NCBI GenBank assembly: GCA_964409955.1
Contig: CAYPEY010000002.1
Coordinates: 17,620 to 81,619, forward strand
Direction of reading: 5' to 3'
Length of the DNA: 64,000 nucleotides
DNA from: an uncultured Staphylococcaceae bacterium
GTDB taxonomy: Bacteria > Bacillota_I > Bacilli_A > ML615J-28 > CAG-313
In this document: positions 557 to 17,538 of the stretch, in pieces
Layout of the letters: each line of letters starts with the position of its first letter
How positions within the stretch are numbered: the stretch's first letter is position 1
Notes under the pieces: model-generated
Told to the model about the DNA's origin: nothing
What the model saw: the letters and a program-made list of their open reading frames with translations, nothing else
Database searches by the model: none
Position numbers and translations under genes: made by a program

Positions 557-1459
557 TTATTTTTTATTATCACTAATAGCATAATCTCTTAAAAATTCTA
601 CTATTTCCATATCTTTATTTTCATCAAACTTACGAGCAAACATTGCCTTGGAATTTAATAATATTTCTTTATCTTCAATGGTATAAGTATATGGTAAACC
701 TCTATCCCAATCAATATGTCGCAAGCACTGATCATTATCATTTTCCATTTCTAATCCATAAAACGAATTTTTAAATGGCGAATTATATAAAATTGTCGCA
801 GCAAAAAACTCTGTGGGACAATATGCCCTGTAAAATGCTTTTTTAAACTTTGGTTCTTCTTTAAGTAAATATTCAACTGCACTATGGGTTATAGAATACC
901 AATCTGCACCTTTTTTTACTTCATAACAAGTTATTTTTTTGTTTTGAATTTTTAATTTTCTTTGTATATTAATTAAAATTCTTCTAATATATATAAACGT
1001 TAAAGATAATGTTTTTGATTTTTGTCTACCTAGCGAAATAAAATAATTTTTATATTTGACCTTATCATCTGTATACTTATAGCAAAAAGAAACAAATTCT
1101 TTTCCTGCATTATTATCAAAAAAATTTAAAAAATCTTTCTGCTTTTTTATTAATAAATCGGAACCTGAAATTAAATGATAATAATCGTATTTTCTTTTAG
1201 ATGATTCCTTTAATAAGGATACCACACCTCTTACCATTGTATAATTACAATAGCTGATTTTAAATCTTTTTACAAAATACAGTTTCGCATACTTCATTTG
1301 ACTAATCCATTCAAATTTTGGATAATTTTTAACTTTTTTATTTATATGTATATATATATCAATTTCTTCCGTGTCCAATTGTTGTAACAAGGCAGTAATA
1401 ACTGAAAAATTATTATGAGCTAATATTAGTATAGCATGTTTCATTATTATCTTTACCAT
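557..1459 (-). CDS. Glycosyltransferase, GT14-like (core-2/I-branching family); the start may be the internal ATG at 1444 (MKHAILILAHNN)
   Basis: N-terminal HAILILAHNNF...IYIHINKK pattern resembles bacterial GT14 branching-enzyme homologues. It sits inside a glycosyltransferase operon with 11 nt to the upstream gene. Confidence 0.5.
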   Translation of the reverse strand: MVKIIMKHAILILAHNNFSVITALLQQLDTEEIDIYIHINKKVKNYPKFEWISQMKYAKLYFVKRFKISYCNYTMVRGVVSLLKESSKRKYDYYHLISGSDLLIKKQKDFLNFFDNNAGKEFVSFCYKYTDDKVKYKNYFISLGRQKSKTLSLTFIYIRRILINIQRKLKIQNKKITCYEVKKGADWYSITHSAVEYLLKEEPKFKKAFYRAYCPTEFFAATILYNSPFKNSFYGLEMENDNDQCLRHIDWDRGLPYTYTIEDKEILLNSKAMFARKFDENKDMEIVEFLRDYAISDNKK

Positions 1460-1470
1460 CCTTATAATTT

Positions 1471-2637
1471 TTATAATAATTCATATATTTTACTCAATAT
1501 AAGTTTATTTTCATTATCAATATCTATTAATTTACAATTATTTTTTAATTTATTCATTAATGATCTATCATCAATTAATCTCTTTATACTTTCATATAAA
1601 CCTTGTATGGATATATCACAAAGTAATCCTGTTAATTCATTAATAATTAATTCATTACCACCGTGAGTTTTAGTAGAAATCACCGGAAGATTTAGGTATT
1701 GTGCCTCACGTATAGTTATACCATAAGCTTCTTGGCGAGCACATTGAACATATATATCAGTGTTTTTCATATACTTATACGGGTTTTTTTGAGAACCAGC
1801 AAAATGAACTCTATCTAATAATTTTAATTCATTAACTATACTATTTAATTTTTCATCAAAGCGTTCATTATCTGCACCACCAACAATTGTCAGCTCACAA
1901 TCATATCCTTCACATATTAACTTATTAAAAGCATATACCAACAGATCAAAGCCTTTTTCAAATACTACTCTTCCTACTGAAACTATACTAATTTTACCTG
2001 ATAAAGTATTTTCTATTGCATCTTTTTTACATTTATCAATATATACGAGATCTATAAAATTATGAATCACTTTACCTTTTTCTTCAAAACAAATTAACGG
2101 ATATTGTTTTTTTACTTCGTTTAAAATACCTTCTGACACAGCACATACATAATCAGCTTTTTTATATATTTTTTCATCTGATTTTTTAATTTTATTAACA
2201 GAATAATGACAGAAAATTATTTTTTTCTTTGCTTTTATATCATTAAAAGCAATATCAGCAGCTATTCCTATTTTATATGCAATTGAGACATCAAATTTTA
2301 ACTTTCTAGTTTTTTTACGAATATATTTTTTAAACATTTTATTTTCTATATATCGTAATATTCTTAACAATATTTTTTGAATTATATTTCTTTTTTTTGC
2401 ATATAATTGTCTTATATGCAAAAAAATCTTTTTCCCTATATAATCATTATTATATTTATTCAATAACAATTTATTGACTTCTGGGGGAATTCTATCTATT
2501 AATTCCAAATTATTAGATAAAATTAATAGCCATACATTATATTTAGAATAATCAAAATTTTTTAAAATGTTTGCTAAACTAACTTCTATTCCACCAACAA
2601 ACATATCAGGATTTACAAAAATAATATTCTTTTTCAT
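1471..2637 (-). CDS. Glycosyltransferase family 4 (GT-B, retaining)
   Basis: N-terminal MKKNIIFVNPDMFVGGIEVSL and C-terminal E..G(I)TIREAQYLNLPVISTKTHGGNELI match the GT4 EX7E region. ATGA overlap with the upstream gene. Confidence 0.75.
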   Translation of the reverse strand: MKKNIIFVNPDMFVGGIEVSLANILKNFDYSKYNVWLLILSNNLELIDRIPPEVNKLLLNKYNNDYIGKKIFLHIRQLYAKKRNIIQKILLRILRYIENKMFKKYIRKKTRKLKFDVSIAYKIGIAADIAFNDIKAKKKIIFCHYSVNKIKKSDEKIYKKADYVCAVSEGILNEVKKQYPLICFEEKGKVIHNFIDLVYIDKCKKDAIENTLSGKISIVSVGRVVFEKGFDLLVYAFNKLICEGYDCELTIVGGADNERFDEKLNSIVNELKLLDRVHFAGSQKNPYKYMKNTDIYVQCARQEAYGITIREAQYLNLPVISTKTHGGNELIINELTGLLCDISIQGLYESIKRLIDDRSLMNKLKNNCKLIDIDNENKLILSKIYELL

Positions 2638-3623
2638 AATTTAACACCAAATCTTCTGATAAATTTTCCTACTTTTTTTCTGAAATAATATTTCTTTAAA
2701 CAACACTTTGGTGATTTTTTCCATTGTTTTAAAAAGTTACTTTTGTAATATTCTTTTTGGATACAGGCATTTTTTAATAAATTATAATATTTTGTTTCTT
2801 TCAAGTAATTCAAAATTTTTTTGGGAGTTTCATTACCATTTAATACAGTTAAAATAGAAAATTCTAATATTCTTGGAATATAAAAATGTAATAATGTATT
2901 TTTAATTACATTAATTCGTTCATCATTATATTGGTCAGCATAATTCACAACTCTTAACATGGCATCTACCGCATCAAAATGTCTATAATCCAATTGCTGC
3001 ATAACAGAGTTTTGATTAATATAATAATTATATACAGCATCATCATTAAAAGTTATATTTTTTGTATGAATCATGTATTTGAATGTAAACTCTTGATCTT
3101 CTCCAGTTCTACAATTAGGAGTAAATTTAATGTAGTTTTGTTTTATTATTTCGGTTTTAAAAATACATCTATAACAAGAAATATATAATCCCTCTAAAAT
3201 AGGCCAACAAAATCGATTAACATCTATTTCATTAATTCTTATATAAGAAGTTTCACCATTGTCAAAAACTTTCAATAATGAACCAATTGATAAATCTGCT
3301 TTTATTATACTTTGATACAAATATAAAACATAATTTGCATCATACCAATCATCACTGTCCAAAAACATTATGTATTCTCCAGTTGCTTCATCTATACCTT
3401 TATTTCTAGCTACAGCAACACCTAAGTTTTCCTGATTTACTACTACAATTCGATTATCTGTATTAGCATATTCTAAGCAAATATTTAAAGAATTATCTGT
3501 TGAACCATCGTTAATAAGTATTAATTCTATATTTTGATATGTTTGATTTAATACACTCTCTATACATCTATTTAAATATTTTTCTGCATTATATACAGGA
3601 ACTATAATACTTATTAAATCCAT
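2634..3623 (-). CDS. Glycosyltransferase family 2
   Basis: SIIVPVYNAEKYLNRCIESVLNQTYQNIELILINDGSTDNS is the classic GT2 N-terminal signature with DxD (DSDD). Confidence 0.8.
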   Translation of the reverse strand: MDLISIIVPVYNAEKYLNRCIESVLNQTYQNIELILINDGSTDNSLNICLEYANTDNRIVVVNQENLGVAVARNKGIDEATGEYIMFLDSDDWYDANYVLYLYQSIIKADLSIGSLLKVFDNGETSYIRINEIDVNRFCWPILEGLYISCYRCIFKTEIIKQNYIKFTPNCRTGEDQEFTFKYMIHTKNITFNDDAVYNYYINQNSVMQQLDYRHFDAVDAMLRVVNYADQYNDERINVIKNTLLHFYIPRILEFSILTVLNGNETPKKILNYLKETKYYNLLKNACIQKEYYKSNFLKQWKKSPKCCLKKYYFRKKVGKFIRRFGVKL

Positions 3624-3640
3624 TCTTTCACTCTTTTCTT

Positions 3641-4210
3641 TTATTTATTATTTTTTTCAGCTTCTTCTTTTCTATTTTTAACTATTTTTGCAGGATTCCC
3701 TACGACAACTGAATATGGTGGAACATCTTTAGCAACAACACATCCTGCACCTATTACACAGCCTTCACCAATTGTTACTCCAGGCATGATCATCACACGA
3801 CGCCCAATCCAAACATCATCACCTATGTGAACTGGTTGAATCGATTTAAACCCTTGTTGATCCATTGTAATATCAACTCTACTTGTTTCATGATTTCGAG
3901 TATATATAATAACTTCTGGACCCATCATTACATGATTACCAATATATGTATTAGGTCCAACCGAACAATTCATACCGATACCAGAATAATCTCCCAAGTG
4001 GATATTCTTATTAAATTTAGCTCTTTTTTCAATGTTAACTTTTTTACCACATTCTTTTATCATTCTTTTAGCTAAAAATCTTCTATATCTTAACCCACAT
4101 TTAATGTGAATAGATTTTTTACCTATTTTAATATATTTATAAGATTCAGGAAACCAATGTCCAGTTAAATAATACAAAATAGAACATATTTTTGAAAATA
4201 TTTTTTTCAT
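3641..4210 (-). CDS. Hexapeptide-repeat (LbH) O-acetyltransferase, WcaF/CatB-like sugar acetyltransferase
   Basis: Repeated [LIV]G-x4 hexapeptides (HIGDDVWIGRRVMIMPGVTIGEGCVIGAGCVVAKDVPPYSVVVGNPAKIV). About 189 aa, typical of colanic-acid/capsule acetyltransferases. Confidence 0.75.
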   Translation of the reverse strand: MKKIFSKICSILYYLTGHWFPESYKYIKIGKKSIHIKCGLRYRRFLAKRMIKECGKKVNIEKRAKFNKNIHLGDYSGIGMNCSVGPNTYIGNHVMMGPEVIIYTRNHETSRVDITMDQQGFKSIQPVHIGDDVWIGRRVMIMPGVTIGEGCVIGAGCVVAKDVPPYSVVVGNPAKIVKNRKEEAEKNNK

Positions 4211-4216
4211 AAAAAC

Positions 4217-5410
4217 CTACATTTCTTCTAATATTGAATAAATTTTTTCAATTTCTTGTTTATTACTATAATCTCTTTTGGAAATATTATATTTAATTTT
4301 TTCTTGTAATTCTTTATTGTTTATAAAATCATATATTCCCTTTGCACATAAATCATTATCAAGAGGAACTATAATTCCGTCAACTCCATCTTCAAGTTGA
4401 CTTGTTGCTGTTGAAAAATTAGTTATTATAACTGGTTTTTCAAGTATTTGAGCTTCTCTCACTGTTACTGCTTTGCCTTCGTATCGTGACGGTTGAACAT
4501 ATATATCGCATGCATTAATATAGGGATACGGATTTTCTTTTTTTCCTAAAATAATAACATTATATTCAACATTATATACTTTAATTTTATCTTTAATAAT
4601 TTGTTCTTGTGACCCATAACCAATAATATACCATTTAACATCTATTCCCATATCTAATATTTTCTTGCAAATATATGGTATATTATCGAAATTTTTAGCC
4701 TCACAAAATCTACCTATTGACAATAACGTTATTTGCTCACTATTATTAACTAGATTTTCATTTAATGATTGTTTTACAATATTTTCTTTAGATAATATAT
4801 TTTCTATCGTAATCAATTTATTTTTTAAAGAAGGAAAAACAATTCCAAAATTAGTTGTTACATCTTGAGACACTCCTACAATAAAATCGTATGGTCGCCA
4901 CATTTTTTCTTGTGATTTTTTATCTAATGCTATGTTCTTATAATCTGTATGTATCCATGCTAATTTTTCTTTTGCTTTTATTTTTTCTTTCACAAAATAA
5001 TGCGGAGCAATAAAACTTATAGCTAAATCATATTCTATTTTTTTTTGAATTTTCGGCATCAACCATTTTGTGTATTTATGATTATAATCGCCATTAATGA
5101 CACCATTTTTAGAATTTTTAGATTTCCTTTTTGCCTTAACTCTAGCAAACAATTTTGATATAAAAATTAATATGTTTCCTTTTTTTAAGTTTTGTCTTAT
5201 TGATGTCTCTATCAACTTGTATCTTTTATTTTCTGCCAACAAATTAACTGTTTTAGGAATATTTTTCAACAATTCTCCTTCATGTGAATTTAAAAACAAA
5301 TCCACTTGATATTTAGAATAATCAAAAGATTCTAATAAACCTATCAAACTACGCTCAGCACCTCCTAAATGCATAGAGCTCATCCAAATAAATATTTTTT
5401 TCATAATCAT
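4217..5410 (-). CDS. Glycosyltransferase family 4
   Basis: MSSMHLGGAERSL N-terminus and C-terminal YEGKAVTVREAQILEKPVIITN motif. Confidence 0.75.
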   Translation of the reverse strand: MIMKKIFIWMSSMHLGGAERSLIGLLESFDYSKYQVDLFLNSHEGELLKNIPKTVNLLAENKRYKLIETSIRQNLKKGNILIFISKLFARVKAKRKSKNSKNGVINGDYNHKYTKWLMPKIQKKIEYDLAISFIAPHYFVKEKIKAKEKLAWIHTDYKNIALDKKSQEKMWRPYDFIVGVSQDVTTNFGIVFPSLKNKLITIENILSKENIVKQSLNENLVNNSEQITLLSIGRFCEAKNFDNIPYICKKILDMGIDVKWYIIGYGSQEQIIKDKIKVYNVEYNVIILGKKENPYPYINACDIYVQPSRYEGKAVTVREAQILEKPVIITNFSTATSQLEDGVDGIIVPLDNDLCAKGIYDFINNKELQEKIKYNISKRDYSNKQEIEKIYSILEEM

Positions 5411-6423
5411 TCCTTTATTTTAATATTTTCTAATGTTTTTTCAATTAATTTATCTGGTTTTAAATAATTATTATAATATATATTATTATTTTTTTTCATA
5501 TTTATTAACTTTTCTTCATTTGTAACCAATTGTTTGATTTTTTCTACACATTCATTAGGGGTTTTAAACGTTAAATAATTTATATTTTCTTTAAACTGGC
5601 CTGGAATTTCGATATCAAATGATTCTGTTACAATTGCAAGAGAACTCGCCAAATATTCGCCAAATTTCCACCCAACACTTTCGTGTAATCCTTTAGTAGC
5701 TACTCCTACATCACACTTTTTTAACATTTTCAAGTAAAACCACTTATTTTCATATTTTTTATTAATAATGTATTGTGGCCCTAATTTACGTGCTAAAGGA
5801 GAATCTGCTAATCCACCAATAAAATTCTCACCAAATTCCTTTGTTAATAATTCCACAATTTTAAATCTCATGTTATTAATTTCATCTCTTTCCTGTGTTA
5901 GTTCTGGAGTTAAGTGTTCCTGTTCGTCCCAAAGCCTTGCCCAATAAGCTATTTTTATTACTTTATTTTTCACAATTTTATTTTCGTATGTTTTATAAGT
6001 ATAATAATATTGTGGTTTTTTTAACAATAGTATTTTAGCAAAACTTTTAAATTTAGATTCATTTAAAGGATTGCCTCTATAAGTAACATGATAATTAAAA
6101 CCTAATGGATACATTTTATTCTTTAGATTTCCAAATTGTTCAGTCTTTTCGCTACAATAACTACGTTTAAAATAATAATCGCAAACGTTTAAATAGTATT
6201 TCATGGCATCTATATTTTGATATCCATCCATCATATCATAAACAATCACATTATTCTCGTATTCTACTATTACAACAGGCACATGATATTTATAATTATT
6301 ATCATTAATATTATCTACGATTTCTAATTTAATTTTTTTCTGTTCTTCAAGCATTTTAAACCCTGTTACAATTTGACTACATACAGCATTTTTAGAAATT
6401 AATTTAATTTTTACTTTTTTCAT
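5407..6423 (-). CDS. Hypothetical polysaccharide-biosynthesis protein, possibly a GT-B-like transferase of unassigned family
   Basis: No signature I can assign with confidence. The C-terminal VATKGLHESVGWKFGEYLASSLAIVTE vaguely resembles a GT-B nucleotide-sugar binding motif. It overlaps both neighbours by 4 nt within the transferase operon. Confidence 0.35.
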   Translation of the reverse strand: MKKVKIKLISKNAVCSQIVTGFKMLEEQKKIKLEIVDNINDNNYKYHVPVVIVEYENNVIVYDMMDGYQNIDAMKYYLNVCDYYFKRSYCSEKTEQFGNLKNKMYPLGFNYHVTYRGNPLNESKFKSFAKILLLKKPQYYYTYKTYENKIVKNKVIKIAYWARLWDEQEHLTPELTQERDEINNMRFKIVELLTKEFGENFIGGLADSPLARKLGPQYIINKKYENKWFYLKMLKKCDVGVATKGLHESVGWKFGEYLASSLAIVTESFDIEIPGQFKENINYLTFKTPNECVEKIKQLVTNEEKLINMKKNNNIYYNNYLKPDKLIEKTLENIKIKE

Positions 6424-7142
6424 TTCTTTTTCCTTGTTAATTTTTGTCGTATATCCTTACCAAATATACGATGTATAATTCTTGTTATTTTATTTCTTAA
6501 AATTTTTCTTTTACTCATCCATGATTTTGCATACCAATGAATAGTATAAGTATTTTCTGTTTTATTAAGTTTTCCTGTTGCATCATCAAATGGGCAAAAA
6601 TAATCTACTGGATAAAGAACCATTCCACCACAATTTTGAAGTTGTCCGTTTGGAACAAATCCATATTCTTTTAAGATGTTTGTAAATATATTACAAACAT
6701 TTATTTTTATACGTTCACCATTTTCATCTAAGAATGCAGCATTATCATACCATTCTCTAGTTTTTTTCATAATTTCATTATTAGGATCTTTAACATACAA
6801 AATTAATCCTGGTGCAACATATTCATCTACTTCAAACCCTGAAAATGCTTCATTTTCAAGAAGATCATCAAGCGGCTTTATTACTTCTACATCTGTATCT
6901 AAATAAATACCACCGTATTGTTCCAATACTAAAAATCTTACATAATCAGATACAAAAGCATATTTCTTTGCTTCATATGCTTGCTTTACATATATATTAT
7001 GATTTATATCAAAATTATCTTCATTCCATTCTTTAATTTCGAAATCAGGAAGATATTTTTTCCAACTTTCAATACATTTTAAAATTATCTTTGGTTTTTC
7101 ATTATGTCCAAACCAACAATAATGAATTATTTTATTGCTCAT
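6420..7142 (-). CDS. Glycosyltransferase with DXD sugar-binding motif (GT32 / capsular polysaccharide synthesis family)
   Basis: IIHYCWFGHNEKPKIILKCIESWKKYLPDFEIKEWNEDNF...GGIYLDTDVEV is typical of Gly_transf_sug/GT32 proteins. RBS AATAGGTGA. Confidence 0.65.
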   Translation of the reverse strand: MSNKIIHYCWFGHNEKPKIILKCIESWKKYLPDFEIKEWNEDNFDINHNIYVKQAYEAKKYAFVSDYVRFLVLEQYGGIYLDTDVEVIKPLDDLLENEAFSGFEVDEYVAPGLILYVKDPNNEIMKKTREWYDNAAFLDENGERIKINVCNIFTNILKEYGFVPNGQLQNCGGMVLYPVDYFCPFDDATGKLNKTENTYTIHWYAKSWMSKRKILRNKITRIIHRIFGKDIRQKLTRKKK

Positions 7143-7150
7143 AAATTCAC

Positions 7151-8305
7151 CTATTTAAATAAATCACTTAATGGAATATGTTGATAGAAATCATACATCC
7201 AGTCACCATTTAGATATTTGCTAAAATATGTATAATAAAAATATATAAAACAAACTAACGAAATAATATAAATTATACTTTTTTCATTTTGATCAATTAT
7301 TCCACATTTTAAAATTATAGCAAAAGATAAACAATTTATTATATCAAAATAATTTCCCATTCTGCCTAACAATATAGCTCCTCCAAAACTAGAAATTACC
7401 ATAAATGCTGCAGAAATAAAACTCAAATTTATACATGTAAAAAAGAATTTATTATCAGTCTTTCTTATATTTTCTTTGTATAAAAAAGACAACGCAGGTA
7501 TTACTAAATATACAGCTACTCTAAATAAACTCATACCCGTACTGTTTGTGAACGAAGATTCATCATATCCACTATCTCCAAGTTCTTCTGCTATACCTAA
7601 TATTCCTTCTGTAAATTCAGTAAAAAATATTCCTATGATAATTGTAACCAAAAGTAACATCCATGTACGTCTATCCCAAATATTTTTTGTAAAGAACGGT
7701 GTTGCAAAAAATATTAATACGTATGGATGAATTAACATAGCAATTAATATCAATATAGATGGTTTTAATATTTTCTTTTTATTTACAAATAATGGTATAC
7801 TCCATATTGCTATTGCAGTAGCAAGAGTTTGTTTAATTGCTGCCATAGTAAATGCATATACTGTAAATGCTATTAATATGAATAACGTAAAACCAAAATC
7901 TACTGAATATTTTTTAATAAATAAAAGGTATGATGTTGTAACTATTATTGCCGTGAAAAATATGAACACATGTGGATTAGTAGATATTAGTGATTTAATT
8001 AATACTCTGTAAATATAAAACAATGGATTTGAACCTATTGTCCAATCTGTTTCTTTAATTCCTGATAAAGTACTAGGTATTTTAGTTTTAAAAGATACTA
8101 TATAATTACCAGTATCATTACCTACTGTCCTAAGTCCAGCAAACAAAATCATAATAATCAATATTATAATAAACATAAGATTAGCCACATTATTATTCTT
8201 TTTATATTCTATTATATTATCTTTAAATATACTGTTATTTGTTTGCTTATTATATGCAATACCTAATAGCGAACAAATAGCAAGCAACAACATAACGTAT
8301 ATCAT
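7151..8305 (-). CDS. EpsG-family / Wzy-type polysaccharide polymerase (polytopic membrane protein)
   Basis: 384 aa with about 10–11 hydrophobic segments and a large loop. The size and position inside a glycosyltransferase cluster are typical of EpsG/Wzy polymerases. Confidence 0.55.
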   Translation of the reverse strand: MIYVMLLLAICSLLGIAYNKQTNNSIFKDNIIEYKKNNNVANLMFIIILIIMILFAGLRTVGNDTGNYIVSFKTKIPSTLSGIKETDWTIGSNPLFYIYRVLIKSLISTNPHVFIFFTAIIVTTSYLLFIKKYSVDFGFTLFILIAFTVYAFTMAAIKQTLATAIAIWSIPLFVNKKKILKPSILILIAMLIHPYVLIFFATPFFTKNIWDRRTWMLLLVTIIIGIFFTEFTEGILGIAEELGDSGYDESSFTNSTGMSLFRVAVYLVIPALSFLYKENIRKTDNKFFFTCINLSFISAAFMVISSFGGAILLGRMGNYFDIINCLSFAIILKCGIIDQNEKSIIYIISLVCFIYFYYTYFSKYLNGDWMYDFYQHIPLSDLFK

Positions 8306-8320
8306 ATTATTACCCCTTCA

Positions 8321-9199
8321 TTAATATTTCTTTTTTGTATTTTTAATATATAAATAATACATTAAACCAAAGGGTAAAAGTATAATTGCATAGAATTTTT
8401 TAGAACATTTTTTTATATAATGTTTTTCTTTTGCAAATTTACTTTCCGCAATATAATGTATCATATTTTTAATAATAAATTTCTTTGATTTAGAAATTCT
8501 CATCATTTCATTTCTAAAATGTGCAAACCCTTTTGCACAAGATTTATATTGTGCAAATTTTGCATATGTCATTGAATCCTCATTATAATCAACTACACAA
8601 GTTGCTTCATTTAATATAAGTAATTGATAATTTTGATCTAATAATTTAAATTTGTAACTTGCAGGATAAAACTTTTCTCCTTCAAATTCTGGATAAGGAT
8701 AAAGTTTAGATAAAGATGATTTGAGAATCAATTTCTTGTCTCCTTTAACTTTATACTTTCCAAAAATATCAAGAGTAGTTGAATGTGAAATCTTAGGAAG
8801 CGGACTTCCTATTATTTCGTTTTTAGGTGTTATGTTATTGGAAATAATACCATAGTATTTATCACTTTTATTTTCTTTCCAAAAACTAGTAATTTTTTCT
8901 ACAGCTTCATCTGTCATCCAATCATCTGAATCTATAATTACATTAATTTCTGTATGAACATTTTCATATGCAAGATTTCTTGCTGTATGCATACCACCAT
9001 TAGGTTTATAAATATATTCTATTTCAATTTTATTTTCTTTTATCCAACTATCAACTAAATCTTTAGTATTATCACTTGATCCATCATCAATAATTAACCA
9101 CAAAAAATCATTTGATGTTTGTCTTAATAATGATTCATATACTTGATGTAAGCAATATGCTCTATTATATGTAGTTGTAATAACTGTTAAAGTTTTCAT
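8321..9199 (-). CDS. Glycosyltransferase family 2
   Basis: LTVITTTYNRAYCLHQVYESLLRQTSNDFLWLIIDDGSSDNT and a later DSDD motif. Confidence 0.8.
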   Translation of the reverse strand: MKTLTVITTTYNRAYCLHQVYESLLRQTSNDFLWLIIDDGSSDNTKDLVDSWIKENKIEIEYIYKPNGGMHTARNLAYENVHTEINVIIDSDDWMTDEAVEKITSFWKENKSDKYYGIISNNITPKNEIIGSPLPKISHSTTLDIFGKYKVKGDKKLILKSSLSKLYPYPEFEGEKFYPASYKFKLLDQNYQLLILNEATCVVDYNEDSMTYAKFAQYKSCAKGFAHFRNEMMRISKSKKFIIKNMIHYIAESKFAKEKHYIKKCSKKFYAIILLPFGLMYYLYIKNTKKKY

Positions 9200-10320
9200 T
9201 ACTTAATTCCTTTATATGTATTAACGTATTTTTCAGTAACCGATTTGATGCTATATCCATGTTTATCAAACGCTTTTTTTATTTTTTCTGCTGAAATTTT
9301 GGTTTTTTTTATGGCACCATTAACTGCATCATTCCATACTTGAAAAGATTCATCTAAATATAGTCTTTCTAGTAAGCCTAAACCTAAATCAGCTTCATTT
9401 GGAATCGCATAAGAACCAACTACTGGAACACCCGAAGCTTGGGCTTCTAAGACTGTACCAGGTAATCCTTCATAGATTGATGGAAAAATTAAAACATCAA
9501 AGACAGATATTAATCTAGGCACATCACCTCTTATTCCTAAGAAAGAAATATATTTACTTAAACCTAAATCAGAAACCTGCTTTTCTATATCCTTTCTTAA
9601 CATTCCATCACCAATAAATAATAGCCTTATATTATCATTCGATTTTCTATATTGATTAAACCATTCTACAATAAATTTGTGGTTCTTCATACTATCAAAT
9701 CTTCCAACATGGCCAATTATAATCTCTTCTTCCGCAATATTCAAATTATTCTTGATTTGATTTTTATCTGCAAAATTTGAAATATACCTTTTTAAATCTA
9801 TAGCATTTGGTATAACTTGAAATTCTTTTTTATTGAATAAAAATTTTCCAGCTTCTCTAGATACAGCAAATCTATGCGTTGAATTTTTATTTATTAAGTA
9901 TTTACCAAATTTTAAAAATAATTTTTTTAACATATTTTTTTGTTTAGAACCAGTTGTTCTAGCATGAGTTATTCTCACAGGTATTTTAACTTTTTTAGCT
10001 GCTAACATAACAAGCCCTGAATGATAAGAAGTATGAGCATGTACTGCATCATAACAACCTTCTTTCATTATTTTTTTTAACTCTTTAATATGTTTTAATA
10101 TTCCAGCATCACGTGGTGATGCTATTTTTATTATTTTTCCATTTAGTTCTTTTATTTCTTTTTCATAATATTGATTTTCATCTTTTGACAAAGTTAAAAA
10201 ATCAAATTCAACTTCTTTTTTATCAATATTACGATATATATCCATCATTCTAGATTCGGCACCACCCATATTAAGTGAACCAAATACTTGTAGTACTTTT
10301 ATTTTTTTTGCTTCATCCAT
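9199..10320 (-). CDS. Glycosyltransferase family 4
   Basis: KVLQVFGSLNMGGAESRMMD N-terminus and C-terminal YEGLPGTVLEAQASGVPVVGS motif. Confidence 0.75.
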   Translation of the reverse strand: MDEAKKIKVLQVFGSLNMGGAESRMMDIYRNIDKKEVEFDFLTLSKDENQYYEKEIKELNGKIIKIASPRDAGILKHIKELKKIMKEGCYDAVHAHTSYHSGLVMLAAKKVKIPVRITHARTTGSKQKNMLKKLFLKFGKYLINKNSTHRFAVSREAGKFLFNKKEFQVIPNAIDLKRYISNFADKNQIKNNLNIAEEEIIIGHVGRFDSMKNHKFIVEWFNQYRKSNDNIRLLFIGDGMLRKDIEKQVSDLGLSKYISFLGIRGDVPRLISVFDVLIFPSIYEGLPGTVLEAQASGVPVVGSYAIPNEADLGLGLLERLYLDESFQVWNDAVNGAIKKTKISAEKIKKAFDKHGYSIKSVTEKYVNTYKGIK

Positions 10321-10367
10321 TACTATATCCTTTTATGTTTCAATAAAAAAATATTTTATTGAAACTT

Positions 10368-11342
10368 TTATAAGTTTTCTTTATACCAAGCTATTGCTTC
10401 GTTTAATCCTTTTTCAAAATCATAATCAGGATCATATCCTAATAATTTTTGTGCTTTAGATATATCTGCATTAGAATGTTTTATATCTCCAAGTCTATCT
10501 GGTCCAAATATTGGTTCAATATCTTTTCCTAATGCTTTTGTTAAAGCATAATAAATATCTATTAGATATTCTCTATCTCCATAAGCAATATTAAAAGCTT
10601 CTCCTGCTGCACTACTTGGTGCAAGACATGCTTTTAAATTTGCTTCAATTACATTTTCTATATATGTAAAATCTCTACTTTGTTTACCATCACCATGAAT
10701 AACAGGTTGTTCGTTATCAAGAAGTTGTTTAATAAACTTAGGAATAACTGCGGCATATGCACCATTTGGATCTTGTCTGCGACCAAATACATTAAAGTAT
10801 CTCATTCCATATGTATCAAGTCCATATAGTTTTGTATATAATTTTGCATATTCTTCATCACATCTTTTTGTTAATGCGTAAGGTGATAAAAGATTTCCCT
10901 CTAATCCTTCTTTTTTAGGAAGTGTTGGTTCATCTCCATATACACTAGATGATGATGCGTAAACAAATTTTTTAACTTTGTTGATGCGTGCTGCTTCAAG
11001 CATATTAAGGGTTCCTTCAATATTGTTTTTACAATAGAAAATTGGTTCTTCAATTGATCTAGGGACACTTCCCCAAGCAGCTTGATTTAAAACATAATCA
11101 ACACCTTCACAAGCTTTAATACATGTATCTAAATCTTTAATATCACCTTTAATAAATTCATAATTTGGATTATCTTTAAACATCTCAACATATTCAATTT
11201 TACCTGTTGATAAATCGTCTAAACATCTTACTTTATATCCCATATTAAGAATTGCTTCACAAAGGTTTGACCCTATAAATCCAGCTCCACCAGTTACTAA
11301 GAAAAGAGTACCTTCTTCGAATTTTAAATGCTTATATCCCAT
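10368..11342 (-). CDS. NAD-dependent nucleotide-sugar 4-epimerase (WbpP/TviC-like, UDP-GlcNAcA/UDP-GlcA or UDP-GlcNAc 4-epimerase)
   Basis: LVTGGAGFIGSNL Rossmann motif and YxxxK region (YALTKRCDEEYAKLY). It lies immediately downstream of a TviB/WbpO-like dehydrogenase, as in Vi and B-band O-antigen loci. Confidence 0.7.
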   Translation of the reverse strand: MGYKHLKFEEGTLFLVTGGAGFIGSNLCEAILNMGYKVRCLDDLSTGKIEYVEMFKDNPNYEFIKGDIKDLDTCIKACEGVDYVLNQAAWGSVPRSIEEPIFYCKNNIEGTLNMLEAARINKVKKFVYASSSSVYGDEPTLPKKEGLEGNLLSPYALTKRCDEEYAKLYTKLYGLDTYGMRYFNVFGRRQDPNGAYAAVIPKFIKQLLDNEQPVIHGDGKQSRDFTYIENVIEANLKACLAPSSAAGEAFNIAYGDREYLIDIYYALTKALGKDIEPIFGPDRLGDIKHSNADISKAQKLLGYDPDYDFEKGLNEAIAWYKENL

Positions 11343-11345
11343 AAA

Positions 11346-12662
11346 TTATAATCTCCAATAGCTGTATCCAGCTTTTTCATATTCATCTCTATTAAGAAGT
11401 CCTTTAACATCTACTAATACTTTTTGTCCTTCACCAAATAAATTATCAATTTGGTTCATTGTAAATTGTTTGAATTCATCATGAGCAACTGCAAGAACTA
11501 CTGCATCCATATTTCTAACATCATTAATATCAACAAATTCAATACCATACAAATGAAGAGCTTCTTCTTTATCTGCAGTAGGGTCTGCAACAACTGGTTC
11601 AATACCATATTCTCTTAATTCCTTGATAATATCAAAAACTTTAGAATTTCTTGTATCTGGGCAGTTTTCTTTAAATGTAAATCCTAAAATTGCAACACGA
11701 GCACCTTTTACAGATTTTGATGCTTTGATAAGATTTTTAACTACGTTTTCAGCAACGTATTTTCCCATATCATCATTTATTCTTCTACCTGCTAAAATTA
11801 CTTGTGAATGATATCCTAACATTTCTGCTTTATATGTTAAATAATATGGGTCAACACCAATACAATGTCCTCCAACAAGACCAGGATAGAATTTTAAGAA
11901 ATTCCATTTAGTACCTGCAGCTTCTAATACTGATTTTGTATCAATGCCAATTTTATTAAATATTATTGATAATTCATTCATGAATGCTATATTAATATCA
12001 CGTTGTGAATTTTCAATAACTTTTGCTGCTTCAGCAACTTTAATAGAGTTAGCTCTATGAACTCCTGCTTCAACTACAAGTTCATAAACTTTAGCTACTA
12101 CATCTAAAGTTTCTTCGTCCATTCCTGAAACTATTTTTACAATTGTTTCAAGACGATGAACCTTATCACCTGGGTTAATTCTTTCAGGAGAATATCCTAC
12201 TTTAAAATCAGTTCCACAAACAAGTCCTGATTCTTTTTCAAGAATAGGTACACAAATATCTTCTGTTACACCTGGATACACTGTTGATTCAAAGACAACA
12301 ACACTTCCCTTTACTAAATTTCTACCTAAAATTCTACAAGCACCTTCGACTGGTGATAAATCTGGCATATGATCATCATGAACAGGTGTTGGTACTGCTA
12401 CTATATGAAATTTAGCATCACGTAATTTCGTTTCATCCGCAGTAAATTCTACAGTTGTTGCTTTTATAGCATCATCACCAACTTCATTAGTTGGGTCTAT
12501 TCCTGATTTATAAAGTTCTATTTTTTTGGCATTTAAGTCATATCCAACAACTTTTACCTTTTTTGCAAAAGCAACCGCTATTGGCATTCCAACATAACCA
12601 AGTCCTACTAGTGATATTTTTTCTTCACCATTTAATATTTTTTCATAAAGATTTTTGTACAT
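11346..12662 (-). CDS. Nucleotide-sugar 6-dehydrogenase (TviB/WbpO/CapL-like UDP-N-acetylhexosamine dehydrogenase)
   Basis: ISLVGLGYVGMPIAVAFAKK...GYDLNAKKIELYKSGIDPTNEV plus a catalytic Cys region (GGHCIGVDPYYL), characteristic of the UDP-glucose/GDP-mannose dehydrogenase family. Confidence 0.8.
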   Translation of the reverse strand: MYKNLYEKILNGEEKISLVGLGYVGMPIAVAFAKKVKVVGYDLNAKKIELYKSGIDPTNEVGDDAIKATTVEFTADETKLRDAKFHIVAVPTPVHDDHMPDLSPVEGACRILGRNLVKGSVVVFESTVYPGVTEDICVPILEKESGLVCGTDFKVGYSPERINPGDKVHRLETIVKIVSGMDEETLDVVAKVYELVVEAGVHRANSIKVAEAAKVIENSQRDINIAFMNELSIIFNKIGIDTKSVLEAAGTKWNFLKFYPGLVGGHCIGVDPYYLTYKAEMLGYHSQVILAGRRINDDMGKYVAENVVKNLIKASKSVKGARVAILGFTFKENCPDTRNSKVFDIIKELREYGIEPVVADPTADKEEALHLYGIEFVDINDVRNMDAVVLAVAHDEFKQFTMNQIDNLFGEGQKVLVDVKGLLNRDEYEKAGYSYWRL

Positions 12663-12674
12663 ATATTTACTCTC

Positions 12675-13778
12675 CTATAATTCCATAGTATTAATTACTG
12701 TTAAATTTACTTTTTTTACATCAAATTTATCTTCTACCATCTTACGGCCAAGACGTGCCATTTCAGGTATAATTTCTTTATGTTCGATAAAATAAATCAT
12801 TTTATCAGCTAAAGCATTTATATCTTTAGCTTCCACTAAATACCCATTTACTCCATCTACAACAGTTTCCCTGCATCCAGGAACATCTGTTGTAAGAATA
12901 GCTTTATATGAAGCCATTGCTTCAAGTACTGATTTTGGAGTCCCTTCTCGGTAAGATGGTAACACAAAAACACTACATTCTTTAAGATATGGTCTTACAT
13001 CTTTTTGCTCTCCAAAATATTCGACTACATTATTATCTATATAAACTTGTAATTCTTCAGGTTTTAAACTAGATGGATTAGTATCAAATGGGCCAACAAG
13101 TAAAAACCTGGTATTTGGGTATTGTTCTTTTACAAGACGAGCTGCCTCTAAATATTCTACAACACCTTTATCTTTAATTAAACGACTAACCGATAAGAAT
13201 GTTACATCACTTGGTAATTCTTGGGGAACAAAATTTTCAAGATTAACCCCTGATCCATGCATTATAACAACTTTATCTTGTTTAATAATACCTAGTTTTA
13301 TAAACAAATCAACGTCATCTTGGTTTTGAAAAAATACTTTTTTAGCTTTTTTAAGAGCTATCTTATATTCAGTTTTTAGAATAAACCTAACTAATGAGGC
13401 TTTTAATCCTTTAGATAAAAAAACAGAACCAACCCCAGCAATCAGTGGATATGTATCAATTTTATATTTTCTTGATGCAAGTCCACCATAAATAACAGGC
13501 TTTGCCTGATATGTAAAGATTTTATCTGGTTTTTCTTCTTTTAATATTTTCTTTAAATGTTTTAATGTTTTTAAATCTTTTAAAGGATTCATTCCATTTT
13601 TTTCAACATTAAATTTTCTATATTTAATTCCTACTTCTTTAAATGAATCTAACCATTTATTCTCATCTTCATTTCCTATTGCAATCACTTCATGTCCTCG
13701 CAATAAAAAATCCTTCATCATATCCATTCTAAACCAAAATAATGAAGGTGTGTGACTAGATATTACTAAAACTTTCAT
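12675..13778 (-). CDS. Glycosyltransferase family 4 (WbuB-like); first gene of the transferase operon
   Basis: GT4 C-terminal motif YREGTPKSVLEAMASYKAILTTDVPG. About 200 bp of non-coding sequence with a terminator lies upstream. Confidence 0.7.
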   Translation of the reverse strand: MKVLVISSHTPSLFWFRMDMMKDFLLRGHEVIAIGNEDENKWLDSFKEVGIKYRKFNVEKNGMNPLKDLKTLKHLKKILKEEKPDKIFTYQAKPVIYGGLASRKYKIDTYPLIAGVGSVFLSKGLKASLVRFILKTEYKIALKKAKKVFFQNQDDVDLFIKLGIIKQDKVVIMHGSGVNLENFVPQELPSDVTFLSVSRLIKDKGVVEYLEAARLVKEQYPNTRFLLVGPFDTNPSSLKPEELQVYIDNNVVEYFGEQKDVRPYLKECSVFVLPSYREGTPKSVLEAMASYKAILTTDVPGCRETVVDGVNGYLVEAKDINALADKMIYFIEHKEIIPEMARLGRKMVEDKFDVKKVNLTVINTMEL

Positions 13779-13955
13779 AAATATAACCTCATCTAGTTAA
13801 AAGTAATACATGTTGTAATATATAATGTGTGTATTTTACTTACTATTCTATTTCTTATTATACTATTTTTTTTCATTTTTTTCAAGTATAATTTACTATT
13901 TTATTAAATTATAATTCACTATTTTATTAAATTAGTTAGTTTTAATGTATTAAAC

Positions 13956-13981
13956 ATAAAAAATCGCATCCAAAGATACGA
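13956..13981 (-). terminator. Rho-independent terminator after the kinase gene
   Basis: Imperfect 8-bp stem atcgcatc/gatacgat with caaa loop. On the minus strand it is followed by a T-run (the plus-strand aaaaaa at 13956–13961). Confidence 0.45.
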
Positions 13982-13985
13982 TTTT

Positions 13986-15101
13986 TTAAATTTTTTGTAA
14001 TGTTTTTACTACTATTTGTTCAAGTTCTTTCATGTTTTGTTCAATAATTGATACAAGTTTTAATTGGTTTCTAGCACGTTCTAAATTAATATTAGGACGA
14101 CGTTTCTTTTGGTCTTGGTTAAGTTCAAAGTATTTATCACCATTGATATAGTCAGTTAAGAAACGCATGCCAAGTTCAAGGGTTATTGTATAATATCCTG
14201 TCATTAGAAGTGATATTTCTTCTTTTGTAATTAAACCTTTGATATTCTTTAAGAATCCTTCTGTGAATGCTTCAATGAGTTCAAAGTTAATATTTACTTT
14301 AGAAAGATCTGTTTCGTCTTCTTTTGCAGTTGATGCGCCAAGACGAAGGGCATCACCAAAGTCATATACAAGTGAACCTTTCATTACAGTATCTAAATCT
14401 ATCATACATAAAGCTTTAGTACCAGTTTTATCAAACATAATATTATTTAATTTTGTATCATTATGAACCACACGTCTTGGGATTTTTTTAGTTTCAAGAG
14501 CATTTACAATAGTTCCCATTGTAGATGATCTTTCATTTACAAAATTAATTAGGTCTGTACATTCTTCTACACGTCCTGCTAAATCTAGTTTTACCGCATT
14601 TGTAAAATCTTCAAAACGTGCTGGAGTATTATGAAAGTTTTTGATATTATCACTTACAAGTCTTGTATGAAAACCATCTAAAAGTTTATGGAATCTTCCG
14701 ATTGCAGCTCCTGCTTCATAAAAGATTTTAGGATCTTCAGTATTATCATATGTAACACCATCTATACAAGTATAGCATCGCCAATATTCATCTTTTACAA
14801 TCGCAAAATTTTCATCATACTTTGTTTTTATAACTGTTAAAGTAGAATTACGATAATTCTTACCTTCATATATTTCTTGTTTACGAATATAATTAGTTAT
14901 TAAATCAATGTTATGCATAACTCCAATTGGAGAATGGAAAACATTCTCATTGATTCTTTGCAAAATATATTTAGTATCTTCAAATTCTACTAAATATGTA
15001 TTGTTAATTAATCCCCCACCATATGGAGTAACACTAACAATATTGTCTACATTAAACCATTCTTTTAAAATTTTTCTTATTTTTTCATTATTTTTTAACA
15101 T
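13986..15101 (-). CDS. Phosphotransferase-family kinase (APH/choline-kinase fold; possibly a sugar-1-kinase or choline/ethanolamine kinase decorating the polysaccharide)
   Basis: Brenner-type catalytic motif HNDTKLNNIMFD and a downstream DLD. The ORF track begins at a GTG (15110); the ATG at 15101 has a GGTGA RBS. Confidence 0.55.
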   Translation of the reverse strand: MLKNNEKIRKILKEWFNVDNIVSVTPYGGGLINNTYLVEFEDTKYILQRINENVFHSPIGVMHNIDLITNYIRKQEIYEGKNYRNSTLTVIKTKYDENFAIVKDEYWRCYTCIDGVTYDNTEDPKIFYEAGAAIGRFHKLLDGFHTRLVSDNIKNFHNTPARFEDFTNAVKLDLAGRVEECTDLINFVNERSSTMGTIVNALETKKIPRRVVHNDTKLNNIMFDKTGTKALCMIDLDTVMKGSLVYDFGDALRLGASTAKEDETDLSKVNINFELIEAFTEGFLKNIKGLITKEEISLLMTGYYTITLELGMRFLTDYINGDKYFELNQDQKKRRPNINLERARNQLKLVSIIEQNMKELEQIVVKTLQKI

Positions 15102-15285
15102 TCTAATCACCTATAATATCTGTTGTATATTATGAATAAGATACTTATTTTGTTACAATTTAAATAAAGTTGTTAATTAATTTTTTCCTAGTGCCATATA
15201 TTTTATATTATAAATGAAACATAAATTATCTTATATATAGTATATCATTTTTTATACGCCTTGTCAAATTGCTATTTTATCCATT

Positions 15286-16430
15286 TTATAAAAAAGTATC
15301 AATTAAATTTCCTATCCATATTGATATATTCTTGATTTTTAATAGCTTAAATATACATATTCTAATAAAATCTATTATAGTGCAACTTAAATATATAATT
15401 ATGCACCACAAAAATATAGCCAAAATCATTATCGGCAAATTTTCATATGATAAATTAATAAATCCGAAATTAATCAAATTATAATAGATAAGCGGATGAA
15501 CATGAATTAAATAAACACCAAATGAAGTACTAGCACCAAGAGTAATTATTTTTTGATACCTTTTTTTAATTTGTAGCTTACTAAAAATTATTAAAAATAA
15601 TATTGAACTAATCACGATATTAGGTGATTGATAATATAGTAAATATGGTAAGTTATATTGTTTATTAAATATTTGTAGCACCATGAAATTAACTAATACA
15701 TTTACCGCTACAGTAACAAGCAATATTATAAATAAATATATAATGCATCTTTTAACTGTAAATTTTTTGAAAGGATCATATATTGAAACATACCCTCCAA
15801 CTAAATATAATATTGCTAACCACAAAAAAGAATATCCATAATTTATTGAATTATATTGTCCCCGAATAATACCAAAACAACAATAAATTATAAATACTAT
15901 AGTAGCATATTTTTTTAACTCTTTTCTTGGTACATTTAATAAGAGATAATTTAATAACGGCATAAACATAAATAATATTACATAAGCAGAAAAATACCAA
16001 TATTGTTCAAATGTAAAAGGTAAAAAGCCTTTTATTAATGTTTTAACCTCTAATACTCCAGTATTCATATATGTATATATAACATATACTATAGTAATTA
16101 TTATAGAATAAAATAACGCTTGTATCCAAAGTTGTATAAGATTAGAATATTTATGTTTAGATTTTATACCTACATAGCCAGATATTAACGCATAAATATT
16201 AACACATGTTAGGCTTATAACATATAAGAATTCTACTATTATACCTTTTGGTGAAAGAAGATTAAGATTCCCTCTTATGCCTCCTTGCCCCAAAATATGT
16301 GTAAGCACAACTAAAAACATCGAAACAATTCTAAGTAAATCAATCCCATAGTTTCTTTCTTTTTTTGTTTCTTTTTTTTACTATTATATTTTCGTAAGTT
16401 ATATTTGTTGCATTCTCCATAACGATATTC
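15286..16430 (-). pseudogene. Acyltransferase-3 family (OatA/OafA-like) membrane O-acyltransferase, frame-shifted at an A8 homopolymer. Codons 1–16 (MENATNITYENIIVKK, from the ATG at 16430 with RBS AAAAGGAG) are in one frame and the body (..KETKKERNYGIDLLRIVSMFLVVLTH.., ORF 15286–16320) is in another
   Basis: The body ORF carries the canonical Acyltransf_3 N-terminal motif GIDLLRIVSMFLVVLTH upstream of its first ATG, but no start codon in frame. A 26-codon ORF with a strong RBS ends 19 nt upstream. Removing one A from the A8 run (plus-strand T8 at 16372–16379) fuses them into one ORF of about 381 aa. Confidence 0.7.
16372..16379 (-). repeat. Homopolymeric A8 tract (T8 on the plus strand) at the frameshift site; a second A7 tract lies 6 nt downstream
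   Basis: Read directly: plus strand ...ctttctttttttgtttcttttttttac... Confidence 0.9.
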
Positions 16431-16757
16431 TCCTTTTATATTTATTATACAATAATATAATGTGTTTTTCAAATTAAATAACTTTTGCAAACACTTGTCT
16501 GATTACTTTATAACAAAATTCAACTTATTTAAAAATATCAACACAACTATAATTAAATTAGCACATTCATCATTAAATATATAATTTTTAATATACAAAA
16601 TCTGAATATTTAAAAACTAAAACGTAATTTAATATTTTTTATTCGTATTATATAAGCGAAAGGAGAATTTTTTCTATTCCATCAAACTTTCGATTATGCT
16701 TGCCATGCGGCTAATTTAGTATATAATATAGCCATAACAACTATTAGGAGGTGTAAT

Positions 16758-17021
16758 ATGATAATCATACCAATGCGTGATTTAAAAGATACGGTCAACA
16801 TAGAAAAACGATGTAAAGAAGCTAATGGACCTGTTTTTGTTACTAAAAATGGATATGGTAAATTAGTAGTCATGGATATATCTTATTACGAAAAATTAAT
16901 AAGTAAAATAAAAGAAGCTAAATTAATTAACCAAGGTTTATCAGATATAAACAATAATGAAGTTTTAGATGTAGAAACTGTAATGAAAAATATAGCTGAT
17001 AAATATGGATTTAAAAAATAA
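16758..17021 (+). CDS. Type II antitoxin, Phd/YefM family
   Basis: MIIIPMRDLKDTVNIEKRCKEANGPVFVTKNGYGKLVVMDISYYEKL matches the Phd/YefM fold pattern. Strong RBS AGGAGGTG. Overlaps the downstream toxin ORF by 17 nt. Confidence 0.65.
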   Translation: MIIIPMRDLKDTVNIEKRCKEANGPVFVTKNGYGKLVVMDISYYEKLISKIKEAKLINQGLSDINNNEVLDVETVMKNIADKYGFKK

Positions 17022-17325
17022 ATATGCTTTTACTAAAACTGCATATAAAGATTTAATAGATATTTTAAATTATATTTCTATAACTCTATCTAATTATAGA
17101 GCTGCTGAAAAATTATACAAAAATATCTTGCAAAAACTTGATCAATTAGTATATTTTTCAAATATGGGAGAAACAGTAAACAATACTTTTTTTAACAATA
17201 AAAATGTTAAAATAATAATGATAAACAAATTTAAATTGTACTATATTTTTTCTGAAGAAGAAAAAGAAATTATAATCTTAAGAATTTTATATTCTAAACA
17301 AATTCTTAAATTTTTAGAACTATAA
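17005..17325 (+). CDS. Type II toxin, RelE/ParE superfamily
   Basis: 106 aa. The N-terminal YAFTKTAYKDL and C-terminal KLYYIFSEEEKEIIILRILYSKQ resemble the RelE/ParE pattern (…yrliY.vd…v.vlrigHR…). Translationally coupled to the Phd-like gene. Confidence 0.5.
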   Translation: MDLKNKYAFTKTAYKDLIDILNYISITLSNYRAAEKLYKNILQKLDQLVYFSNMGETVNNTFFNNKNVKIIMINKFKLYYIFSEEEKEIIILRILYSKQILKFLEL

Positions 17326-17431
17326 TTTTTATAAGTAAAAACCTGTTCACAATTTGAAATAGTCAAGAAATTCATAACAATATCTATGATATATCTTTAT
17401 ATATATGATTGTTTTCTGCAATTTTCTTAAC

Positions 17432-17480
17432 AAAAGACTACAAATTTACTTTGTTTTCTAGTAAGTTTGTAGTCTTTTTC
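17432..17480. terminator. Bidirectional hairpin between the convergent parE-like and abiEii genes
   Basis: 12-bp perfect stem aaagactacaaa / tttgtagtcttt with a loop of about 22 nt, flanked by A- and T-runs. Confidence 0.45.
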
Positions 17481-17538
17481 TTTATTGGCTTTCTAATCTT
17501 TTGTATAATAAACTTTTAGTTAATCCAGTAATATTTCG

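Follow-up and report, generated by a model that had tools for sequence, protein, structure and literature searches.

A poly(A) tract with two natural length alleles sets the reading frame of an AT3 acyltransferase gene in a bacterial polysaccharide locus

RESULTS

A split acyltransferase gene at the head of a polysaccharide locus

The DNA considered here is a stretch of 64,000 nucleotides (nt) from an uncultured bacterium (contig CAYPEY010000002.1, positions 17,620 to 81,619), hereafter the window, and all coordinates are positions in it. Pfam scans place a gene for an O-acyltransferase of the AT3 (Acyl_transf_3) family, read on the minus strand, at the head of a minus-strand series of polysaccharide genes extending as far as position 1 of the window. 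The genes downstream of it encode an APH-like kinase, several glycosyltransferases of the GT4, GT2, and GT1 families, a UDP-glucose dehydrogenase, an epimerase, an EpsG-type polymerase, a hexapeptide acyltransferase, and a Branch-type glycosyltransferase. In the window, the acyltransferase is represented by two open reading frames (ORFs) of 26 and 344 codons, which together make up one gene and are separated by a +1 frameshift in the minus-strand sequence GTA-A8-GAAAC-A7-GAAAGAAAC. The first of these two poly(A) tracts exists in nature in two lengths on otherwise identical DNA, A8 as in the window and A7, and of these A7 leaves the gene in frame. A first-pass annotation, made from the letters of the window, had described the gene as an O-acyltransferase broken at the A8 run and had offered the run as a candidate phase-variation switch.

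The upstream half of the gene is preceded by recognizable expression signals (Table 1). The first-pass annotation had credited the 26-codon ORF with a ribosome-binding site 7 nt before its ATG; the site is indeed present, but the spacer is 9 nt when counted from GGAG and 7 nt only if the Shine-Dalgarno sequence is taken as GGAGAA. Promoter-like matches occur in this AT-rich region at chance frequency (26 found versus 25.4 expected), though the TTGAAA/TATAAT site itself is well placed. The promoter region holds only weak AT-rich inverted repeats, and a promoter-region inverton is unlikely. The Acyl_transf_3 frame opens at 16377, immediately after a TAA that combines T16380 with the two leading As of the A8 tract, and between this TAA and the ATG at 16320, which encodes M34 of the full-length protein, the main frame holds no ATG, GTG, or TTG. 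Nor could a Shine-Dalgarno sequence be read ahead of the M34 ATG, and an alternative start codon for the main frame is thereby ruled out. These readings agree with the first-pass view that the Acyl_transf_3 ORF lacks a start codon ahead of its conserved N-terminal motif, which lies in frame 5' of the ATG at 16320, and that the two frames meet in the run of A8 (16379 to 16372) and A7 (16366 to 16360).

Deletion in silico of one A from either tract produces a single ORF, as had been predicted, although its length is 377 amino acids (aa) and not about 381. When the length of the first tract is varied, A7 gives the 377-aa product and A10 one of 378 aa, whereas A5, A6, A8, and A9 give peptides of 25 to 36 aa; the tract length at codons 14 to 17 sets the reading frame, as phase-variable loci require. 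The 344 codons that follow the shift carry no second lesion, and the promoter-like site, the ribosome-binding site, and the start codon are intact, so the gene looks to have been functional until recently.

Table 1. Features of the acyltransferase locus and Logan contigs aligned to the window
Feature or contig	Window positions	Strand	Basis or remark
Promoter-like site TTGAAA-17 nt-TATAAT, 11/12 matches, about 24 nt 5' of the ATG	16444..16472	-	Consensus match
Ribosome-binding site AAAAGGAG	16430..16437	-	Read from sequence
26-codon ORF MENATNITYENIIVKKRNKKRKKLWD, true 5' end of the acyltransferase gene in the OFF (A8) frame	16340..16420	-	ATG 16420, TGA 16342-16340
First poly(A) tract, A8 in the window, polymorphic site	16372..16379	-	Coding-strand As, codons 14-17
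12-nt tandem repeat AAAAAAGAAAC/GA, encoding KKET then KKER	16352..16378	-	Tandem Repeats Finder: period 12, 2.2 copies, 93% matches
Second poly(A) tract, A7, invariant in all three sequences	16360..16366	-	Loss of one A here also restores the frame
Acyltransferase-frame extension without start codon, encoding KKETKKERNYGIDLLRIVS	16321..16377	-	Contains R30 of R-X10-H and the first half of transmembrane helix 1
Acyl_transf_3 gene body, annotated 344-aa ORF P0001 from M34 (ATG 16320) to the stop at 15286	15286..16320	-	ORF list, Pfam
Promoter-like site TTGACA-17 nt-(TG)TATACT between the acyltransferase stop and the next gene	15239..15267	-	Consensus match
Downstream polysaccharide biosynthesis genes	557..15110	-	Pfam scans
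L016, run SRR14307642	6014-14985		1 SNP; tract not covered
L017, run SRR14307658	11976-15363		No difference; tract not covered
L019, run SRR14307642	16061-17381		No difference; A8 (OFF)
L020, run SRR14307656	16055-17176		1 gap; A7 (ON)
L021, run SRR14307658	2819-12003		No difference; tract not covered
L022, run SRR14307642	51840-54780		No difference; tract not covered

AT3 family membership and the motif cut off by the frameshift

The repaired 377-aa protein matches Pfam PF01757 (Acyl_transf_3) with E = 2.8e-28 (99.4 bits, against a cut-off of 31) from residue 23 to residue 343, which spans profile positions 1 to 325 of 326. This is its sole Pfam match, and the architecture is that of an AT3-only protein without a fused SGNH domain. 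A search of 5.8 billion proteins recovered >1,500 relatives, from which we aligned 19 of 360 to 410 aa with 37 to 45% identity to the repaired protein over the whole alignment. All 19 are intact and carry the motif (K)ERNYGIDLLR(I/L)(V/I)SM, within which R22, Y24, D27, and R30 are invariant, and all four of these residues are encoded 5' of the first ATG of the 344-aa ORF. The ERNYGIDLLR segment, in frame but upstream of that ATG, supplies the arginine of R30-X10-H41 in the A7 or repaired protein, which fits the R/K-X10-H motif of transmembrane helix (TMH) 1 that is present in all characterized AT3 acetyltransferases (Pearson et al., PMC7448272); in Salmonella OafA, the R14A and H25A mutants retain <1% of activity (PMC7448272). 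Kyte-Doolittle hydropathy places TMH1 at about residues 25 to 46 and recovers many hydrophobic segments from residue 25 to residue 362, where an AT3 protein is expected to have about 10 TMHs. YALISG (residues 76 to 81) corresponds to the TMH2 motif FFXISG of the family, and the loop after it, KSKHK, is basic but not of the form RXXR, a motif of AT3 loop 2-3 that is not absolutely conserved (PMC7448272). On sequence grounds (the profile match, the R/K-X10-H motif, and the AT3-only architecture), the protein can be assigned to the AT3 family.

In the A8 allele, R30 lies in no ORF that has a start codon. A product begun at M34 would lack the TMH1 arginine and half of TMH1, and since no Shine-Dalgarno sequence precedes M34, the window allele is probably OFF, in keeping with the first-pass description of an AT3 gene broken with its motif 5' of the first ATG. 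The 344-aa call P0001 of the public annotation (15286 to 16320), which lacks the TMH1 arginine, is a gene-calling artifact on a frameshifted gene. As for the substrate, homologues with 43 to 45% identity also lie inside polysaccharide loci, and this context, taken with that of the locus itself, suggests that the enzyme acylates a surface glycan.

A7 and A8 alleles in independent assemblies

Further copies of the gene were sought among the 5.8 billion proteins, GTDB species representatives, JGI metagenome contigs (by protein and by exact DNA), and IMG/VR; above 46% identity, these returned nothing except the 344-aa call of the window itself and one 89-aa fragment at 80%. Since IMG/VR gave no match, there is no support for a phage origin of the gene. 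A collection of 15 billion proteins contained no full-length ON protein and no partial Logan products. Exact-protein look-ups of the neighbors of the acyltransferase retrieved Logan assemblies of three Sequence Read Archive runs that contain the same strain; those of P0001 itself and of AbiEii gave no match. Six contigs from these runs align to the window over 26,929 nt with one single-nucleotide polymorphism (SNP) and one indel, and the indel is the tract itself. Contig L019 (SRR14307642) shares 1,321 nt with the window at 100% identity, the A8 included, while L020 (SRR14307656) is identical across 1,121 nt save for A7 at 16372 to 16379. The repair predicted by the first-pass annotation (A8 to A7, giving ...IIVKKETKKERNYG...) is thus found in nature, and the comparison of tract lengths between related isolates that it had proposed yields A8 in L019 and A7 in L020, as expected for slipped-strand variation. 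In L020, the gene is called from the upstream ATG, beginning MENATNITYENIIVKKETKKERNYG, as a continuous ORF MENATNITYENIIVKKETKKERNYGIDLLRIV... that extends to the end of the contig.

To gauge the reliability of these lengths, we compared the other A/T runs of the same contigs with the window: none of 142 runs of at least 6 nt, none of 49 of at least 7 nt, and none of 11 of at least 8 nt differs in length, the last including an A9 at 5038 to 5046. The sole SNP in the 26.9 kb is at 14572, C in the window and A in L016 (SRR14307642, contig position about 414), and results in R180L in the APH-like kinase adjoining the acyltransferase; because it separates the two assemblies, the A8 observations in the window and in SRR14307642 are not trivially one consensus. 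A7 (ON) and A8 (OFF) are real alleles of one strain: since they occur on otherwise identical DNA and the control tracts show no indel, the polymorphism is genuine, and the homopolymer sequencing error that the first-pass annotation had named as its alternative is unlikely.

The contigs L019 and L020, although from different runs, end within 6 nt of each other (16055 to 16061) inside the acyltransferase gene, in an (AT)n-like low-complexity stretch, and L017 ends at 15363. The gene is never whole in Logan, which accounts for the lack of a full-length ON protein on record.

Origin of the tracts

The two poly(A) tracts fall within a 12-nt tandem repeat (Table 1), which was also recovered as a direct repeat (D6). 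The 12-nt duplication gave rise to both tracts and doubled the target for slippage. Compared with the closest homologue at the tract, the window has 22 additional nt and the ON allele 21. Among distant homologues, one from a locus with 30% guanine plus cytosine (GC) has A7 at the same place, and those from loci with 35% and 44% GC have no such tract. The closest homologue is the 89-aa fragment P0121, which lies on ENA ERZ28633882 scaffold_82495 (L018). This scaffold is chimeric: at about positions 360 to 995, the AT-rich bacterial 5' end of an acyltransferase gene is joined to GC-richer DNA resembling a mammalian tRNA-derived short interspersed element, presumably of artiodactyl type, so P0121 is an assembly artifact at its C terminus.

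The window has six more coding-strand A8 or A9 runs in glycosyltransferase genes of this polysaccharide locus (2391 to 2398, 5038 to 5046 [A9], 5489 to 5496, 9303 to 9310, 10071 to 10078, and 10302 to 10309), one of them at nt 11 of the GT4 gene at 9199 to 10320. None of the six breaks its reading frame in the window, and wherever contigs from SRR14307642 and SRR14307658 cover such a run, its length is the same; slippage could act at these sites too.

Neighboring genes and host

The promoter-like site between the acyltransferase stop and the next gene (Table 1) could give the polysaccharide genes beyond it a promoter of their own, so that the frameshift may affect acylation only, although polarity on the downstream genes is possible. 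Rfam searches found no family near the acyltransferase gene.

On the other side of the acyltransferase, the polysaccharide locus is separated from the next genes by a small defense or mobile islet (16758 to 19931). It comprises, on the plus strand, a Phd-like antitoxin and a ParE toxin (16758 to 17325); on the minus strand, an AbiEii nucleotidyltransferase toxin and a 198-aa upstream partner, probably AbiEi (17539 to 19289); and a 144-aa fragment of the RhuM family (19497 to 19931) that covers only profile positions 17 to 91 of 252. The GC content of the islet is 22.7%, whereas window positions 20231 to 64000 have 28.6%. It is followed by a 300-nt intergenic stretch (19932 to 20230) with a locally GC-richer segment, ...ttcgcgcaagagacgtacgcggc..., and then a hairpin with a T-run; no Rfam family was found there at the gathering score. 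Farther along are a two-component system (22354 to 24071) with a single tRNA-Arg (CCT) on the plus strand (24191 to 24265) in the divergent gap beside it, a 1,820-aa protein with Listeria-Bacteroides repeats (TIGR02543; 42967 to 48429) that is probably a surface protein, and a 1,431-aa protein with duplicated acyl-CoA dehydratase activase (CoA_E_activ) domains (55883 to 60178).

The window as a whole has 27.6% GC and is 93% coding. Its histidine kinase matches proteins of gut metagenome-assembled genomes labeled Anaeroplasmatales, Eubacteriales, or Clostridia, at no more than 63% identity. The host appears to be a rarely sampled, uncultured, low-GC member of the Bacillota, apparently of the gut; rarely sampled, because the phosphoglycerate mutase of the window has no relative with at least 90% identity among the 15 billion proteins.

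DISCUSSION

Known systems with comparable alleles

A frame-setting pair of poly(A) alleles in an AT3 gene resembles established cases and will not surprise a specialist. By analogy, the nearest in mechanism is the 5' poly(A) tract of Listeria monocytogenes inlA, and the nearest in gene family are oafA and wcjE. In inlA, A7 is in frame and A6 out of frame, and tracts of 6 to 7 nt toggle at about 1,000 times the frequency of point mutation (Orsi et al. 2010, PMC2831843). Both cases concern Bacillota and a short poly(A) in the first codons of a surface-related gene, with both lengths in natural isolates and a tiny peptide as the OFF product. They differ in that inlA encodes an internalin and not an AT3 acyltransferase, and in that here A7 would be ON and A8 OFF, with a second A7 tract 5 nt downstream. 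The inlA mechanism is replication slippage, with a measured reversion frequency, whereas the window gene is known from its allele sequences and slippage is the probable cause of their difference.

Haemophilus influenzae oafA, with a tetranucleotide repeat array and high switching rates, is a recognized contingency locus. Like the window gene, it belongs to the AT3 family and undergoes repeat-length ON/OFF change within the 5' coding region (PMC9558356); it is phase variable and was frameshifted in the first Rd genome sequence (PMC9558356). Its substrate, however, is a heptose of the lipooligosaccharide of a Gram-negative pathogen, and the window gene has only a homopolymer of 7 to 8 nt. Streptococcus pneumoniae wcjE (11A/11E, 9V/9A) is, like the gene studied here, a stand-alone AT3 gene in a Gram-positive polysaccharide/capsule locus, and its inactivated alleles in natural isolates change capsule O-acetylation and antigenicity (PMC9558356). 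These alleles arise by many different and mostly irreversible mutations, which amounts to microevolution and not to a repeat switch, so the likeness is one of shared family. In Escherichia coli K1, capsule O-acetylation is likewise varied by slipped-strand changes, in neuO (PMC3090145), but NeuO is not an AT3 protein (PMC9558356) and varies through heteropolymeric repeats (PMC3090145). Finally, an O-acetyltransferase gene of a Bacteroides fragilis polysaccharide locus carries a frameshift owing to one additional C in a run of 4 Cs (PMC3090145), a case drawn from a comparison between strains, without evidence of switching.

Proposed mechanism and alternative explanations

We propose that the locus works as follows. 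A single gene, the first in a surface-polysaccharide locus, encodes an AT3-only membrane O-acyltransferase of about 377 aa and carries in its codons 14 to 21 two poly(A) tracts that stem from the 12-nt duplication (KKET, KKER). With A7 in the first tract, the gene is in frame, and the enzyme would be made and the polysaccharide O-acylated (ON). Replication slippage would add one A, and the resulting A8 shifts the frame so that translation stops after 26 codons; with M34, the only downstream ATG, devoid of a ribosome-binding site, no enzyme would be made and the polysaccharide would be left un-acylated (OFF). The same slippage could return A8 to A7, A8 being itself slippery, and phage, host immunity, or the cost of acylation could select either state in large gut populations. 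The role in immune evasion that the first-pass annotation suggested is no more than an analogy, and phage pressure is at least as plausible for gut Bacillota. Because both alleles occur on otherwise identical natural DNA, we consider it somewhat better than an even chance (roughly 0.55) that poly(A) slippage toggles the frame of the acyltransferase and that the tract acts as a mutational ON/OFF site.

Several observations pull against this proposal. Only two allele states are seen, in two or three observations of the tract, and the window assembly and the SRR14307642 contigs may not be independent, though they are one SNP apart. SRR14307656 gave only a 1.1-kb contig, which suggests low coverage, and the controls include no contig from this run, its control look-up having returned a contig listed under SRR14307642. 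The data are consensus contigs, with no within-sample mixture, reversion, or switching rate among them. Further, the tract is ordinary for this DNA: A/T runs of at least 8 nt number 19 in the window, against 25 to 48 expected under Markov models of order 0 to order 5. Intact ORFs hold 12 of the 19, in some cases beyond the polysaccharide locus, and since 5 of these 12 fall in the first 80 nt of their genes, the 5' position of the tract is not special. The first-pass annotation had proposed a check for A/T tracts of at least 8 nt in the 5' coding regions of other surface genes; 5' tracts of this length do exist, several of them outside the polysaccharide locus. The closest homologue (80% identity; P0121, L018) has A6, lacks the 12-nt duplication, and reads MENTQVINTENKKERNYG. 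The tract seems to have arisen through the use of AAA codons for lysine in a positively charged cytoplasmic tail, as a by-product and not as an evolved switch, and its sequence gives no sign of selection for switching. The switching rates of inlA, moreover, lie far below those of classical contingency loci. Its A6/A7 reversion frequencies are 5.5e-7 and 3.9e-8 (PMC2831843), and runs of 7 to 8 nt may accordingly switch slowly. The phase-variation switch of the first-pass annotation therefore stands in part: the ON and OFF alleles are real, but the tract is short (7 to 8 nt) and commonplace. What the tract has in common with contingency loci is that it sets the frame and varies in length among near-identical genomes (in two or three observations); it is neither unusually long nor over-represented nor conserved as a repeat, and membership in that class is only partial.

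Many of the same observations would suit a one-off loss of function, in which a single inserted A inactivated the gene in one lineage, A7 is ancestral, and the tract is merely the likeliest place for an ordinary indel, a case of incipient pseudogenization like that of wcjE. We hold this to be possible, if tentative: the A8 run is ordinary for this genome and such runs are not enriched, the tract is not conserved in the closest homologue, each of the two states seen is apparently dominant in its own sample, comparable Listeria tracts change at low rates, and AT3 genes of capsule loci are known to lose function through mutations of various kinds (wcjE, serotype 11E; PMC9558356). Yet the flanks are identical (no SNP in 1.1 kb and one in 26.9 kb), so that the change must be very recent, no second lesion has accumulated in 344 codons and the expression signals are intact, and the A8 allele is still able to revert, which leaves only a difference in rate between a reversible and an irreversible event. 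That the tract has one true length, A8 (window, L019) or A7 (L020) being a homopolymer miscall of sequencing or assembly, is unlikely. Indel errors classically occur at homopolymers, L020 is short and its coverage probably low, and we found no paper citing the runs; still, the same six contigs are free of indels at 142 other A/T runs of at least 6 nt (11 of at least 8 nt, one of them an A9), A8 is present in two assemblies (the NCBI contig and L019) that differ elsewhere by a SNP, and in the window, 93% of which is coding, all 12 other coding runs of at least 8 nt are in frame. Least probable of all, and in our view very improbable, is recoding, by which RNA polymerase slippage on A8 (to A7 or A10 transcripts) or a +1 ribosomal shift would keep the gene leaky or constitutively low. 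Runs of A or T do support transcriptional slippage, and from 8 As a few per cent of A7 transcripts is conceivable: the usual threshold is about 9, yet runs of 8 As seem productive in some insertion sequence elements, and an A8 run in human apoB restores about 10% of product (PMC1088944). However, the shift needed here is +1 or -2, which rules out the common -1 ribosomal frameshift on A-AAA-AAA, nothing resembling the stimulatory element of prfB is evident, homologues do not conserve the tract, and an in-frame A7 allele exists, so that recoding is not needed to explain a working gene.

A stronger form of the slippage proposal would make the tract a true contingency switch, with populations in different animals or at different times flipping capsule O-acylation under phage or immune pressure, and with the six A8/A9 runs in glycosyltransferase genes (starting at 2391, 5038, 5489, 9303, 10071, and 10302) forming a combinatorial glycan "phasome" in the manner of the poly-G tracts of Campylobacter. 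We think this joint reading rather unlikely. If true, it would extend slipped-strand capsule variation to gut commensal Firmicutes, in which the switches described are inversion based.

Implications

The finding adds little conceptually, as homopolymer frameshifts that switch or inactivate O-acetyltransferase and other surface genes have long been known. As an example it is clean and real, with its alleles recovered from independent public runs. For automated annotation, the practical point is that only the A7 allele encodes the true product of the gene, which has 377 aa. Should the tract toggle in vivo, it would be a marker, readable from metagenomes, of surface-glycan variation in an uncultured gut bacterium, and the A7:A8 ratio of each sample could then be correlated with host, time, or phage load.

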